Below are positions 307 through 9,981 of a stretch of 10,347 nt of DNA, in pieces. Source of the stretch: a virus (lineage: Duplodnaviria > Heunggongvirae > Uroviricota > Caudoviricetes); IMG/VR virus record IMGVR_UViG_2529293213_000037; one strand, written 5' to 3'. Position 1 is the first letter of the stretch, and each line of letters starts with the position of its first letter. The translations under genes and the position numbers were made by a program. Below the pieces are notes generated by a model, which did not search any database, was not told where the DNA came from, and saw only the letters and a list, made by a program, of their open reading frames with translations.

Positions 307-498
307 TTAAAGTCCTGCCGGTATTTCGTTATTATTAGTGTGAGTAGTTTTATCTACCGGATAACAGTTACCGGGAATTTTTTGTTCTGCTGCTGCAGCC
401 ATGCATTCTTTCATTGAACCGTATAAGCCAGTCACCAGCTCAAGAGATTCGCCGGAAACAAGATAAACTGTCAGAACGAGTGCAAATGTTGTATTCAT
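307..498 (-). CDS. ydfD: Small membrane protein, YdfD-like (63 aa; Qin-type lysis protein family)
   Basis: 63-aa ORF with an N-terminal hydrophobic segment (TTFALVLTVYLVSG). Its ATG overlaps the stop of the upstream DicB-like gene (ATGA overlap at 495-498). AAGGA Shine-Dalgarno 8 nt upstream. Size and position immediately after dicB match YdfD from memory. Confidence 0.6.
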   Translation of the reverse strand: MNTTFALVLTVYLVSGESLELVTGLYGSMKECMAAAAEQKIPGNCYPVDKTTHTNNNEIPAGL

Positions 499-683
499 TG
501 TTTATATCCTTTTTGCAGCAGGTCCAGACGAGCCAGCATTGAAGGAATGCATACTTCATTTAACAGGTCCTGCTCGAGTTTTCTCTGCTTAATGGCGTCT
601 TCAATAAATGTTTTGTCTCCAGTGATAACGCCAATTTCGAAACGAAGTTCAGACGTGCTGGCATTACATGATAACTTTTCCAT
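495..683 (-). CDS. dicB: DicB-like cell-division inhibitor (62 aa, MinC-activating family)
   Basis: Internal ATG at 683-681 with GAGGA 7 nt upstream gives a 62-aa product (MEKLSCNASTSELRFEIGVITGDKTFIEDAIKQRKLEQDLLNEVCIPSMLARLDLLQKGYKQ) that matches DicB as I recall it (FEIGV, FxEDAIxKRK, SMLARL). The longer 98-aa ORF in the track has no RBS and is probably an upstream extension artefact. It lies about 180 bp downstream of the DicF-like RNA. Confidence 0.7.
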   Translation of the reverse strand: MEKLSCNASTSELRFEIGVITGDKTFIEDAIKQRKLEQDLLNEVCIPSMLARLDLLQKGYKQ

Positions 684-920: not shown

Positions 921-1256
921 TATTGATAACAGAGGGCGTTGCAGCGGGGTTGTCACTTAAGCGTATGGTCAACCTGACAACCCGGTGTCCTCAACGGGGA
1001 AAGAATAACCCCGCCATACTTACCGCCGCGCCATTTCGCGGATTGCCACAACCGGAAGCGCACGGTCGAATTAAATTTAACGACGGCTCTAAGGGAGAAG
1101 GACTTCGCCGTGCACTTTCGTGTTATGCCCTGACTTTTCAGGGATATATCCTTTCAGTAAACTGTCAGTGCCGGATTCTTATCTGTGTCCGGCGCACGAC
1201 CACACGTAGCAGCGTGTTGGTCTCCATTTTTAATTCAGCCCTTAATGGAGGATAAA

Positions 1257-1442
1257 ATGCCAAACAAACCATGCCCTGCCTGTAACGCTCTTTCTGGCTT
1301 TTTAGAGAAGGGCGGTTATTACATTTTTAACTGTCCAGAACATGTTGAATTTCATATATCAAAACTTGACAGTATCATTACAAAGCCAAATCAGTATCAG
1401 TCTGATTTACTGAATAAAGAGTTAAACGCCGCCCGAGATTAA
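1257..1442 (+). CDS. Small zinc-ribbon-like protein (61 aa; CxxC ... CxxH), encoded antisense within the dicB-type operon
   Basis: ATG at 1257 preceded by GGAGGA (4-nt spacer). Product MPNKPCPACNALSGFLEKGGYYIFNCPEHVEFHISKLDSIITKPNQYQSDLLNKELNAARD has a CPAC ... CPEH pattern typical of a zinc ribbon. Not recognised as a named gene. Confidence 0.4.
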   Translation: MPNKPCPACNALSGFLEKGGYYIFNCPEHVEFHISKLDSIITKPNQYQSDLLNKELNAARD

Positions 1443-1479
1443 GGGCGTAGTGGCCCATTAAAAATATTGCAAAGACCAA

Positions 1480-1632
1480 CTATTGTTGAACTGGATTAAA
1501 CCAGTAATTCTCTATTGCTCTTATTGTTACCATCGGATGATTGCCGGGGGTTATTTTAAGTTCGGGAGGAAAAGGCTCTCCATCAGCAGCCATCATTGAG
1601 TATGTGAAATCCGCCGACGCAGTCCCTTTCAT
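1480..1632 (-). CDS. Either a 50-aa translationally coupled small ORF or the C-terminal part of the frameshifted upstream gene
   Basis: ATG at 1632-1630 overlaps the upstream stop (ATGA). The same frame is open upstream back to about 1838 without an ATG, which suggests a fusion with 1629-2018 after a -1 shift. Product ...MKGTASADFTYSMMAADGEPFPPELKITPGNHPMVTIRAIENYWFNPVQQ. Confidence 0.35.
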   Translation of the reverse strand: MKGTASADFTYSMMAADGEPFPPELKITPGNHPMVTIRAIENYWFNPVQQ

Positions 1633-2018
1633 GATAATTCCGAATTTTTCAAGTAATGAGAGCAGTTCCGGTAATCCTGTGTCATCTGAATAACTTTCCT
1701 CATAGAAAGAAGCGATTGCCGCAGGAGATGACAGTTCTCGCTCTGCAATTTTTTTGTAGTTTTCCAGAATTCTTTTTTTGAATACTTTTCCTCGACATGA
1801 AAACCCATCACCGAGGCAATCCGCTTTGCAGTTTCTTCAGTATTCTGGTTGTTTGTTACCGAAACAGAGTACAATCCGGTAAACGCATCGCGCACATTAC
1901 GAGCCATATTATCAATGTATTTCTTCGTTGCAGATTCTAATTCAACTTCGTTCAGACGTTGGTGAAGTGCATGTGCTGCAATTTCCTGGATTTCTTTTAG
2001 TAAATCTTTAAATTCCAT
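1629..2018 (-). CDS. Hypothetical early-left operon protein at the ydfC position; annotated frame of 129 aa, but probably frameshifted at an A7 tract
   Basis: ATG at 2018 with GGAG 7 nt upstream. N-terminal part (MEFKDLLKEIQEIAAHALHQRLNEVELESATKKYIDNMARNVRDAFTGLYSV...) looks like real coding. After the A7 run (minus strand of 1773-1779) the annotated frame uses rare codons (AGG, CGG x2) while the -1 frame stays open to 1480 and reads more protein-like. Confidence 0.55.
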   Translation of the reverse strand: MEFKDLLKEIQEIAAHALHQRLNEVELESATKKYIDNMARNVRDAFTGLYSVSVTNNQNTEETAKRIASVMGFHVEEKYSKKEFWKTTKKLQSENCHLLRQSLLSMRKVIQMTQDYRNCSHYLKNSELS

Positions 2019-2592: not shown

Positions 2593-2880
2593 TCAGATAG
2601 AGAAGGGAAATTGTCGCCGAGAATGTGTCACGCTTACAATCTCAATGCTTGAAGCAGCTACTCTGTACAGGATTATGTAGTTAGGGTGGGTCACGATCTC
2701 TCTCAATCCAGAAACCCGTTCGCTTGGTGGATATAAGTACGGATGCTCAGATAGAGGTAATACCGATGTTTCAATGCGTATTTTTAGTCTACGTGCTGCC
2801 GGTGGGTTCTCCTTGGCGATGTAAGTTATGATCTGGCGCAAATCATCGCGAGCAGACGGTAGCCATAAAATGGGTAACAT
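2593..2880 (-). CDS. parE: ParE/RelE-superfamily toxin (95 aa), type II toxin-antitoxin system
   Basis: Product MLPILWLPSARDDLRQIITYIAKENPPAARRLKIRIETSVLPLSEHPYLYPPSERVSGLREIVTHPNYIILYRVAASSIEIVSVTHSRRQFP... has the ParE-family hallmarks. Its start overlaps the stop of the upstream antitoxin gene by 1 nt (TAATG). Confidence 0.8.
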   Translation of the reverse strand: MLPILWLPSARDDLRQIITYIAKENPPAARRLKIRIETSVLPLSEHPYLYPPSERVSGLREIVTHPNYIILYRVAASSIEIVSVTHSRRQFPFSI

Positions 2881-3071
2881 TACTCGCTCTTGTTAGTTAC
2901 AGCAATTTGAGCAATAAGATTTTCCATTTCAGCCATTACCTCGTCATGTGGAATTGCGGGGCGAGTGTCTGCAAGGCTTGACGTTACTTTAGTGCGCAAC
3001 CATTCGTTGTAACTGTTTTCTTGTTCGGTAGTTTCGAATTCTGAAACTATCGGAGAAAGGGCTGTACCCAT
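2880..3071 (-). CDS. paaA: Antitoxin (63 aa) of the three-component ParE system, PaaA-like
   Basis: Product MGTALSPIVSEFETTEQENSYNEWLRTKVTSSLADTRPAIPHDEVMAEMENLIAQIAVTNKSE. GAGGAG Shine-Dalgarno 7 nt upstream. Sits 27 nt after the repressor stop and is directly coupled to the ParE gene. Size and sequence resemble the PaaA2 antitoxin from memory. Confidence 0.7.
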   Translation of the reverse strand: MGTALSPIVSEFETTEQENSYNEWLRTKVTSSLADTRPAIPHDEVMAEMENLIAQIAVTNKSE

Positions 3072-3098: not shown

Positions 3099-3500
3099 TC
3101 ACGCCCGGCGGCTTTTTTGTGCCGCCAGCCACCTAGCAATGGTTTCTTCCATTGATTTTTTCTTGTCTTTGATTTCTTGAAGCATTTTTTCTTGGTCTTC
3201 CTCAGGAAACGCACTAAAAGCTTGGAGCAGTTCGCGTTGGCGAGGACCAATTTTCATCGTGTCAGGGGTGAAAATTTGCTCACACTCTTCAGGAGGCAAT
3301 AAAAACCAATGCAATGGATGCCCTGAAACCTCAACCAGTTTATCCAAACTTGAGGCTTTAGGTGTAGCCTTACCGCTGACCCATTGTTGAACAGTTTGTT
3401 GTGTCACACCAATTCTACGGGCAAGCTCAGCCTGGCTCCATCCAGTTTCCTGAAGAAGCTTGCTGATTCTGTACATAGATACTTCTAGGGCGCTCATCAT
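3099..3500 (-). CDS. XRE-family HTH repressor (DicA/RacR/PaaR-like, 133 aa); probable prophage immunity repressor and regulator of the TA operon
   Basis: N-terminal HTH (QAELARRIGVTQQTVQQWVSG) and a C-terminal domain resembling DicA. Divergent from the Cro-like gene. No Shine-Dalgarno before the ATG, and a TAAAAT -10-like hexamer sits about 7 nt upstream, so it may be leaderless. Confidence 0.8.
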   Translation of the reverse strand: MMSALEVSMYRISKLLQETGWSQAELARRIGVTQQTVQQWVSGKATPKASSLDKLVEVSGHPLHWFLLPPEECEQIFTPDTMKIGPRQRELLQAFSAFPEEDQEKMLQEIKDKKKSMEETIARWLAAQKSRRA

Positions 3501-4303: not shown

Positions 4304-4813
4304 ATGAGTAATGACAAAAAATTGACACTGAGCGTTTACGAAAACAGTCCGCACATCTGGCGTGGCGGTTTATCTGATGTGGAGCTGGCAGAGTGGTTGA
4401 TACATAAAGCTAATGCGCTGCTCTGGCGTTTGTCAGCCAGAGAACAGCGCAAGGAAACCAGAATAAAGCTGGCTGATGCAGAAGCGTGTGCCGGGCTTAT
4501 TGAGGATTATACAAATCTTGGTATTTCTTCAGCAGAGAGTGATCCCATTCAGCCTCTGAGCAGGGAGTCAATCCAGCACGCTGGTTGTATGGCACATCTT
4601 GTAACTGCTCGTCAACATGAGGTGGGTATTGGATCACTTCCGGCGGGATATTCGCTGATTCCAGAGCTGGTTGAAGCAAGAAAATCAGTTCAGAAAAAGA
4701 GAGATGACGCACTTCAATTATTGAGAGAGCACTATGGCGCGATACCAGAATGCGAACAGCGTCGATACCCTGAAGGTTATGAATGGATGCAGTCTCTTTT
4801 TGAAGTTCGCTAA
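4304..4813 (+). CDS. Hypothetical phage early protein (169 aa)
   Basis: Long ORF co-oriented with the operon, product MSNDKKLTLSVYENSPHIWRGGLSDVELAEWLIHKANALLWRL.... Weak Shine-Dalgarno. The track places the start at a GTG at 4253 that overlaps the ydaT-like gene; the ATG at 4304 is preferred. Confidence 0.55.
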   Translation: MSNDKKLTLSVYENSPHIWRGGLSDVELAEWLIHKANALLWRLSAREQRKETRIKLADAEACAGLIEDYTNLGISSAESDPIQPLSRESIQHAGCMAHLVTARQHEVGIGSLPAGYSLIPELVEARKSVQKKRDDALQLLREHYGAIPECEQRRYPEGYEWMQSLFEVR

Positions 4814-9221: not shown

Positions 9222-9825
9222 GCGTTCTCCCCATGAGCATTAAAGGATGCTTAAGATATGCTATGTCACTGATAAAAAATTTGTTGTGTGTGTTTAGTTA
9301 TTTTATCTACCTCCATTATGATTTAAGACTGATATATGTTATCAGCAAAGGTACATCGTTATTATTTTACCTGTCAATACATTTGATATTGATTATCGTT
9401 TACATCGCTTGCTTAGGAAATTGAAGGCAGGTAACTATCATGTCAATGAACTAACCCACAGTCTAACGTACTTCTTTCCCCAATCACCAACAACCAAATT
9501 CCTGTTATCACCACTGGGATTTTGGCGCAACTTCATGGTGCAGAGGTAAATAGCATCAAGCAAAATCTCTTTTTCCGTTGTTGTCCTTATGGGACGTCTG
9601 TCTTTCTGACCGATTTCATATTGGCGAGGTAATGGGAAGTTAAGTAGAATAGCTGCGGGTGCTTGAGGCTATCTGCCTCGGGCATGAACACCAACGGCAG
9701 ATAGAGAAAAGCCCCAGTTAACATTACGCGTCCTGCAAGACGCCTAACATTAATCTGAGGCTCAATCTATGAACGGCAAATCTAGGTTAGCCTCTTACGT
9801 GCCGAAAGGCAAGGAGAAGCAGGCT

Positions 9826-9981
9826 ATGAAGCAGCAAAAGGCGATGTTAATCGCCCTGATCGTCATCTGTTTAACCGTCATAGTGACGGCACTGGTAACG
9901 AGGAAAGACCTCTGCGAGGTACGAGTCCGAACCGGCCAGACGGAGGTCGCTGTCTTCACAGCTTACGAACCTGAGGAGTAA
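9826..9981 (+). CDS. hokD: Hok/Gef-family type I toxin (51 aa), closest to HokD (RelF)
   Basis: Product MKQQKAMLIALIVICLTVIVTALVTRKDLCEVRVRTGQTEVAVFTAYEPEE, about one substitution from HokD as I recall it. AAGGAG upstream. The track ORF (from 9769) is an in-frame N-terminal extension. No relBE-like ORFs upstream. Confidence 0.8.
   Translation: MKQQKAMLIALIVICLTVIVTALVTRKDLCEVRVRTGQTEVAVFTAYEPEE

Follow-up and report, generated by a model that had tools for sequence, protein, structure and literature searches.

A described counterpart of the locus analyzed here is the slot of sieB, the gene for the superinfection exclusion protein SieB of Rac, lambda and P22. In Rac the sieB gene lies opposite the early-left operon, between the DUF1391-type genes and a pair consisting of a small RNA (sRNA) and a division inhibitor, and it converges on the 3' end of the upstream gene. 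SieB is a membrane protein of ~160-190 amino acids (aa), 162 aa in Rac, by which superinfecting phage are aborted. The dicBF-type operon, of which E. coli O157:H7 has several copies, is a model for the effects of defective prophages on host division and phage resistance. The DNA studied here, referred to as the window, is a 10,347-nucleotide (nt) stretch of a Caudoviricetes virus (IMG/VR record IMGVR_UViG_2529293213_000037), and the subject is ECs1061, a 61-aa open reading frame (ORF) encoded on the plus strand (1257..1442), antisense to a dicB-type early-left operon. Many E. coli O157:H7 chromosomes match window bases 800-1700 with 100% identity, and the region is annotated in strain Sakai as 'prophage Sp4, lambda-like phage', adjoining yccA. 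The order in K-12 Rac is racR(-), ydaG(-), ydaF/DUF1391(-), sieB(+), KilS sRNA(-) and kilR(-), and the order in Sp4 is repressor(-), DUF1391(-), ydfB(-), the ydfC-position gene(-), ECs1061(+), DicF(-) and dicB(-). The two maps match, and the ECs1061 slot is therefore positionally equivalent to the sieB slot. ECs1061 shares the orientation of sieB and likewise converges on the 3' end of its upstream neighbor, the ydfC-position gene, hereafter the partner. The initial annotation of this DNA, based on the letters alone, had placed an oppositely oriented sieB at this point of Rac, in agreement with the K-12 annotation.

ECs1061 is a genuine translated small protein gene under protein-level selection, and an ordinary-looking prophage accessory gene in an immunity-proximal slot. 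This assignment combines existing annotation, conservation, selection, structure prediction and published ribosome profiling (Ribo-seq). The reading frame begins with the ATG at 1257, ends with the TAA at 1440-1442 and translates as MPNKPCPACNALSGFLEKGGYYIFNCPEHVEFHISKLDSIITKPNQYQSDLLNKELNAARD, with the motif C6-x2-C9 ... C26-x2-H29. The Shine-Dalgarno (SD) sequence GGAGGA (1247..1252, +) is located 4 bases ahead of the ATG and is the same in every locus that carries the leader described below; S4 Table of Hücker et al. 2017 (PMC5597208) also lists an SD 4 bp upstream, with a dG of -6.3. By inspection the protein is hydrophilic and near-neutral in charge, with no hydrophobic or membrane segment. 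The ORF is situated in the interval between DicF and the partner, where the 559 bp (921-1479) that separate the DicF 5' end from the end of the operon-strand frame at 1480 contain operon-strand ORFs of only 33-36 aa. The initial annotation had described this interval correctly, as about 560 bp devoid of operon-strand coding facing an antisense 61-aa ORF with a GGAGGA and a CxxC ... CxxH pattern. It had further called such a protein unexplained by the known dicB operon genes. As an ORF, ECs1061 was known before, its annotation dating back to the Sakai genome (ECs1061/NP_309088, hypothetical protein; WP_001133046.1 in RefSeq; EDL933_1245 in EDL933); it matches phrog_10133, a family without assigned function, with E = 7e-48, and it is already present in published Ribo-seq data. 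A literature search found no functional study of ECs1061, and the DicF papers are silent on the ORF.

The homologue family comprises five 90%-identity clusters among 5.8 billion: the 61-aa form, an 84-aa call of an allele with 95% protein identity, two 80-aa clusters (64-67% identity) and a 91-aa form (48%). The alleles align over the first 61 codons without insertions or deletions, and C6, C9, C26 and H29 are invariant in alleles of 95, 67 and 48% protein identity, whereas H33 is variable. Comparison of the window allele with an 80-aa allele, at a nucleotide identity of ~70%, yields a ratio of nonsynonymous to synonymous substitution rates (dN/dS) of 0.15-0.18 with dS of 1.4-1.6. The proportions of synonymous (pS) and nonsynonymous (pN) sites that differ between the two are 0.64 and 0.21, respectively, giving a pN/pS of 0.32; the Fisher p is 9e-7 for the 61 codons and 5e-9 when 80 codons are compared. 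The comparison with the 48% homologue gives a pS of 0.96 and a pN of 0.37 (Fisher p = 4e-15). Among the six frames of the stretch only that of ECs1061 is open and only it exhibits a synonymous excess; the remaining five have pN/pS values of 0.55-1.66 and 3-6 stops each. Coding on the minus strand was considered as the cause of the conservation and ruled out by stops in all three minus frames.

Translation of ECs1061 is documented in S2 Table of Hücker et al. 2017 (PMC5597208). In LB the RNA and footprint levels, in reads per kilobase per million (RPKM), are 12.2 and 68.2, with a footprint-to-RNA ratio (RCV) of 5.58 and a coverage of 0.51. The corresponding values in BHI are 33.8, 30.8, 1.04 and 0.69, and nearly no translation is seen under cold/salt stress. 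The values in LB and BHI, both from uninduced Sakai cultures, clear the translation thresholds of that study (RPKM >= 1, coverage >= 0.5 and RCV >= 0.25), although expression in uninduced cultures may include a share from spontaneously induced cells. The body of the ORF is single-copy in the E. coli genomes searched, and only the first 60-70 nt of the query, which belong to the shared leader, recur elsewhere; multi-mapping of Ribo-seq reads is therefore no concern. The supplement of the proteome paper does not list ECs1061. The initial annotation had singled out conservation of the frame and cysteines, and detection of a translated product, as decisive for its proposal; the former holds at 67% and 48% identity and the latter is provided by these published footprints.

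An AlphaFold2 (AF2) model computed with a six-sequence family alignment has a mean confidence (pLDDT) of 82.5. The model comprises β-strands at residues 3-5, 12-18, 21-26 and 30-35, followed by helices at 39-42 and 46-60. C6xxC9 is placed in the hairpin turn between strands 3-5 and 12-18, and C26xxH29 in the turn between strands 21-26 and 30-35. Two Cys/His pairs in two hairpin turns constitute a zinc-ribbon arrangement, and zinc binding is predicted. The fold, the ligands and the annotation together agree with the initial description of a small zinc-ribbon-type ORF antisense within a dicB-type operon. An all-helical AlphaFold model built from the single sequence (pLDDT 50) was dropped in favor of the alignment-based model.

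Sequence searches linked the family to no named one. A Pfam scan of the ORF returned no family at E <= 10 and NCBIfam was likewise negative, and the best match of a profile search of the PDB was a generic zinc knuckle with a weak E of 0.044, with no named zinc-ribbon family or structure reaching significance. PADLOC-DB v2 contains no family that matches the ORF, its homologues, the partner or the alternative cargos of the slot at E <= 1, and searches of Pfam, NCBIfam and PDB sequences with the partner and the alternative cargos were negative as well. An exhaustive HMMER search of 1.84 billion representatives identified one true distant homologue, P0005; the matches P0003 and P0004 are repeat-protein artefacts. 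Two scans of GTDB species genomes revealed no true relative, and a Chitinophagales match found there covers the helical part only and was judged spurious. A tblastn search with the ORF against 50,697 phage genomes gave nothing significant.

The positional equivalence to sieB does not extend to the proteins. BLASTP of the 80-aa form against Rac SieB produces no alignment at E <= 100, there is no match to the Pfam SieB family, and members of the ECs1061 family, with 61-91 aa, are much shorter than Rac SieB, soluble-looking and predicted to adopt a zinc-ribbon fold. Rac YdaE, a phage zinc-binding protein, likewise shares no detectable similarity with ECs1061. The likeness to Mu Com and P2 Ogr, phage proteins of ~55-75 aa with two Cys/His knuckles ~16 residues apart and a short C-terminal segment, is limited to size and ligand spacing. 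ECs1061 differs from such small phage zinc-finger proteins in being near-neutral rather than basic, in being antisense to the operon and in having His as the fourth ligand.

The slot is a variable cargo site of lambdoid prophages with a conserved front end. This front end is a leader of ~90 nt (1168..1256, +) that includes hairpin 1 (1168-1195), hairpin 2 (1198-1222) and the sequence UCCAUU (1223-1228). Near-identical copies of the leader precede non-related ORFs in L004, L033, L034 and L035. The alternative cargos are a 69-aa protein (WP_001133037.1, phrog_4274), whose first four codons, MPNK, are in common with ECs1061, a ~100-aa ORF that is not annotated (L033), a 75-aa protein (phrog_20080) from L034, whose operon lacks dicB, and a 57-aa ORF (L035). 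Across other prophages, no fewer than five small ORFs that are unrelated to one another follow the leader. The slot of L032 contains a deletion remnant, and in K-12 Qin the opposite strand carries no cargo at the slot position. In terms of position, this variable cargo supports the likeness to the sieB slot that the initial annotation had drawn. The leader portion of the query (1199-1268) has 1,276 matches in 758 genomes, ~411 of which carry the zinc-ribbon cargo. Extra opposite-strand genes occur between the sRNA and the leader in two loci, namely a 170-aa gene of phrog_1244 with a CPKC...CLHC pattern (L002, 1920-2432, +) and a 106-aa gene (L032, 797-1117, +), and the slot can therefore take more than one cargo gene.

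As plus-strand RNA the leader is strongly structured, with a folding energy of -36.4 kcal/mol and z = -4.4, compared with z = -1.9 for the minus strand. Hairpin 2 exhibits compensatory variants across loci. The window has the form CCACACG..CGTGTTGG, L017, L030 and L031 have it flipped, in exact reverse complement to the version of L002, and L022 (6490-6520) and K-12 have CTCCAC..GTGGAG. The stem is maintained by compensatory change or by flipping of a quasi-palindrome. UCCAUU can pair with AAUGGA (1244-1249), masking the first bases of GGAGGA, and both elements are kept in nearly all leader copies; the pairing could constitute a translational control element. K-12 Qin likewise has hairpins 1 and 2, just downstream of ydfC (L006, ~4543-4610), where no opposite-strand gene exists. 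The hairpins may therefore act on either strand, plus or minus.

The window ORF is a truncated allele of an ancestral 80-aa protein. Codon 62 is TAA in the window and TCA (Ser) in L030, a metagenomic contig, and L026, a Logan contig, both with 95-97% protein identity, in which the ORF runs 19 codons further to ...RPTIVELD, giving 80 aa and matching the 67% alleles in length and tail. The window retains this tail as an intact in-frame remnant of 18 codons (GRSGPLKILQRPTIVELD) and a TAA (1443..1499, +), separated from the ORF by the nonsense codon at 1440-1442. The tail is the C-terminal end of the 80-aa allele, whose ORF shares 20 nt with the 3' end of the convergent gene. The Sp4-type module, at >= 99% identity, occurs in ~385 of 5,426 complete E. 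coli genomes and is not confined to O157:H7.

The partner (1480..2018, -) is also interrupted in the window, where it is split into segments of 129 aa (1629-2018) and 50 aa (1480-1632). Elsewhere it is intact at 179-186 aa, including 179 aa in both L026 and L030. The split results from a -1 frameshift that shortens A8 to A7 on the coding strand (T7 on the plus strand, 1750-1756), and because of it the RefSeq annotation, produced by the Prokaryotic Genome Annotation Pipeline (PGAP), ends at 1629 with only the 129-aa product. The slippery homopolymer could in principle permit frame-restoring slippage. The partner family shares a conserved N-terminal region of ~55 aa (MEFKDLP...NVRDAF..LY), has highly different C-termini and is distributed across phrogs 1363, 2151, 9419, 6937 and 33007, all without assigned function. 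The partner C-terminus switches in step with the adjoining small ORF. Taken alone, this joint change is as expected from recombination between two conserved flanks. The genome counts, the phage records and the most distant locus point beyond this. DNA encoding the partner C-domain is present in 412 of the 5,426 E. coli genomes and zinc-ribbon DNA in ~411, and both fall in the same way into near-identical copies and a class of 60-80%. Neither the partner C-domain nor the zinc-ribbon ORF was found in 50,697 phage records, in which the partner N-terminal part is common.

The most distant locus is represented by the Logan contigs L022-L025, from a lambdoid prophage in which genes for integrase, YdfE, DUF1482, Cro and YdaT are present. 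In L022 the 91-aa homologue (48%) lies behind another leader and between different flanks, and it converges on a gene for a 135-aa protein with a 118-nt overlap of the 3' ends. This protein corresponds in essence to the partner C-domain alone (33% identity, E = 1e-12) and has no MEFKDL N-terminus. L022 5733-7206 contains two tandem convergent pairs, 135 aa (-)/91 aa (+) and 157 aa (-)/65 aa (+). The second pair is situated behind an Sp4-type leader with flanking repeated sequences; the repeats that bound the pairs are D1 (45 nt), D2 (29 nt) and D3 (29 nt), and the products of both minus-strand genes begin with MGERKIS. The layout looks like a cassette array.

These features invite comparison with several known systems. 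As is characteristic of morons, ECs1061 is present in some related prophages and missing or replaced at the same site in others. Polymorphic effector-immunity pairs resemble the locus in that the neighbor has a conserved N-terminal and a variable C-terminal region with a matched small ORF, kept across deep divergence. The genes of such pairs, and of toxin-antidote pairs, are co-directional, whereas ECs1061 and the partner are convergent and overlap at their 3' ends. Type II toxin-antitoxin systems share with this locus the joint inheritance of adjacent genes, seen in the matching genome counts and in L022, and differ from it by their co-directional bicistronic operon. For neither ECs1061 nor the partner did Pfam, NCBIfam, PADLOC or PDB sequences yield a significant match to a toxin or antitoxin family. 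The lambda OOP unit is similar in being short and converging on the early operon of a phage, and the 3' ends overlap here too in intact ECs1061 alleles, but the ECs1061 unit encodes a protein under purifying selection.

We favor, with moderate confidence, the reading that ECs1061 is a translated accessory ('moron') gene for a CCCH zinc-ribbon protein, an interchangeable cargo of the slot that acts as a binding module. The N-terminal half would form the zinc ribbon from two β-hairpin knuckles, followed by an amphipathic helix and, in the 80-aa form, the conserved tail; the product would serve as a small zinc-stabilized binding module. ECs1061 points against the early-left (PL-type) promoter and is therefore expected to be expressed from its own signals; it would be made in the lysogen and would act by binding. 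The near-neutral charge slightly favors a protein over a nucleic acid as the target. Our preferred candidate, put forward tentatively, is the partner C-terminal domain that is inherited along with ECs1061; a lysogen-expressed inhibitor or regulator would then face an effector expressed upon induction. A bolder and rather unlikely extension is that the early-left operon carries a polymorphic two-gene cassette, not described before, of an effector C-domain gene and a convergent small gene that neutralizes or regulates it. The operon-sense gene would then join the conserved N-terminal region to an exchangeable effector domain at the C-terminus, and the small gene, here encoding the zinc-ribbon protein, would overlap its 3' end and be expressed in the lysogen. 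Cassettes would be swapped as units, the small gene often sitting behind the conserved structured leader. Should the variable C-terminal domain and the small protein prove to be a matched pair, they would represent a new module architecture in lambdoid phages.

An external target, serving superinfection exclusion or host modulation, is about as likely as the partner domain. As an anti-phage moron ECs1061 would, like SieB in the equivalent slot, block incoming phage, and this possibility draws on the positional equivalence to Rac sieB, on the antisense orientation to the lytic operon together with translation in uninduced cultures, and on the diversity of cargo behind one leader, as would be expected of genes under diversifying selection. 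It is weakened by the lack of similarity to SieB or to PADLOC families, by a product of 61-91 aa that is hydrophilic and, unlike SieB, has no membrane segment, and by the tight linkage to one partner domain, which an autonomous exclusion gene would not need. A role at the RNA level, with coding secondary, is improbable. Transcription from the leader would in that case damp leaky read-through into the toxic dicF-dicB segment, by transcriptional interference or by RNase III cleavage of the overlapping 3' ends as for lambda OOP. The leader is indeed much better conserved than the cargo and strongly structured as plus-strand RNA, and the ORFs of intact alleles overlap the convergent 3' end by 20-118 nt. 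Nonetheless, protein-level selection is clear, with near-saturation at synonymous sites, the metal ligands do not vary and ribosome footprints cover the ORF; moreover, the presence of hairpins 1 and 2 in the cargo-less K-12 Qin indicates that their conservation may serve the operon-sense RNA. The reading of ECs1061 as a chance frame or annotation artefact with no product of consequence could appeal to its short length and restriction to one lineage, to the consensus scan that gave no promoter and to the many ORFs of 30-110 aa that arise by chance across the window. It is essentially excluded by the frame-specific purifying selection, the ligands and synteny kept at 48% identity, the confident predicted fold and the Ribo-seq translation.

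Several observations weigh against the binding-module reading of ECs1061 or its pairing with the partner. The RNA level is low (RPKM 10-34), and the family is very narrow, being restricted to Escherichia-type lambdoid prophages. In the dominant allele the ORF is truncated and its neighboring partner frameshifted, so that this allele may be decaying. The co-inheritance with the partner could reflect mere physical linkage between conserved recombination flanks. L032 retains the 211-aa partner of the 69-aa cassette with the small ORF mostly deleted, which, for this type of cassette at least, speaks against an essential antidote. The signals for expression are also elusive. A consensus scan identified no sigma-70 promoter upstream of ECs1061, the sole published promoter was predicted by BPROM, at 122 bp upstream (Hücker et al. 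2017, S4 Table, PMC5597208), and the accessible portion of the EDL933 Cappable-seq start tables (PMC10469882) contains no entry for ECs1061. The promoter that the initial annotation had expected near 1200-1250 is accordingly not confirmed by the scan or by that portion of the tables. A hand-picked candidate (GTAGCA at 1206-1211, a 17-nt spacer and TTTAAT at 1229-1234) was set aside since its -10 element is not conserved among the leader-bearing loci. ECs1061 is at present an uncharacterized orphan of narrow distribution, and the copy in the window may be partly degenerate. The slot nevertheless offers a concrete place to seek lysogen-expressed exclusion, immunity or regulatory functions.

The only terminator-like site on the plus strand is a weak hairpin at 1490-1505. 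The accessible portion of the Cappable-seq tables places plus-strand starts at EDL933 (CP008957) positions 1254075 and 1254217 (window ~1881 and 2023), seen in 7-8 of 8 conditions (PMC10469882); as mapped there, these starts are downstream of ECs1061 and antisense to the partner gene and ydfB. In the same portion, a minus-strand start at 1253115 (window 921) coincides with the DicF 5' end (PMC10469882). The initial annotation had proposed that transcription of the ORF runs antisense to the DicF precursor. This would apply to the operon transcript upstream of DicF only, as the ECs1061 transcript would run away from DicF itself.

The early-left operon occupies the minus strand of the window in the order repressor, RelB/RelE, DUF1391 gene, ydfB, ydfC-position gene, DicF, dicB, DUF1482 gene, exonuclease and integrase. 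PGAP annotation was transferred by subtracting 8701 from the L001 coordinate. The repressor gene is at 3099-3500 (-) and dicB at 495-683 (-), the latter from the PGAP annotation of an identical sequence. The DicF sRNA (920-869, -; Rfam RF00039, 76.9 bits) is downstream of the ydfC-position gene in the operon sense. L002 (~1585-1620) and L003 (~2185-2220) contain no Rfam match to DicF; their sequence at the sRNA position, GGGCGGACATCAGCC...AAACTGATGCCGCC, is more like the Rac KilS region than like canonical DicF and does not include the DicF 5' seed. A 110-aa ORF at 923-1255 (+) covers the conserved non-coding block upstream of DicF. The part of the EDL933 Cappable-seq supplement available (PMC10469882) includes a plus-strand gene '6110' at 1253144-1253449 (window 950-1255), which is missing from the current RefSeq annotation, and the 923-1255 ORF is probably not a gene. 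Within the early-left operon, the repressor and the DUF1391 gene flank a RelE/ParE-RelB toxin-antitoxin pair (2593-3071, -), which is missing from several related loci (L002, L004 and L005). Finally, the prophage contains a hok/sok locus, marked by a sok antitoxin RNA at 9657-9831 (+; Rfam RF01794, 105.6 bits).

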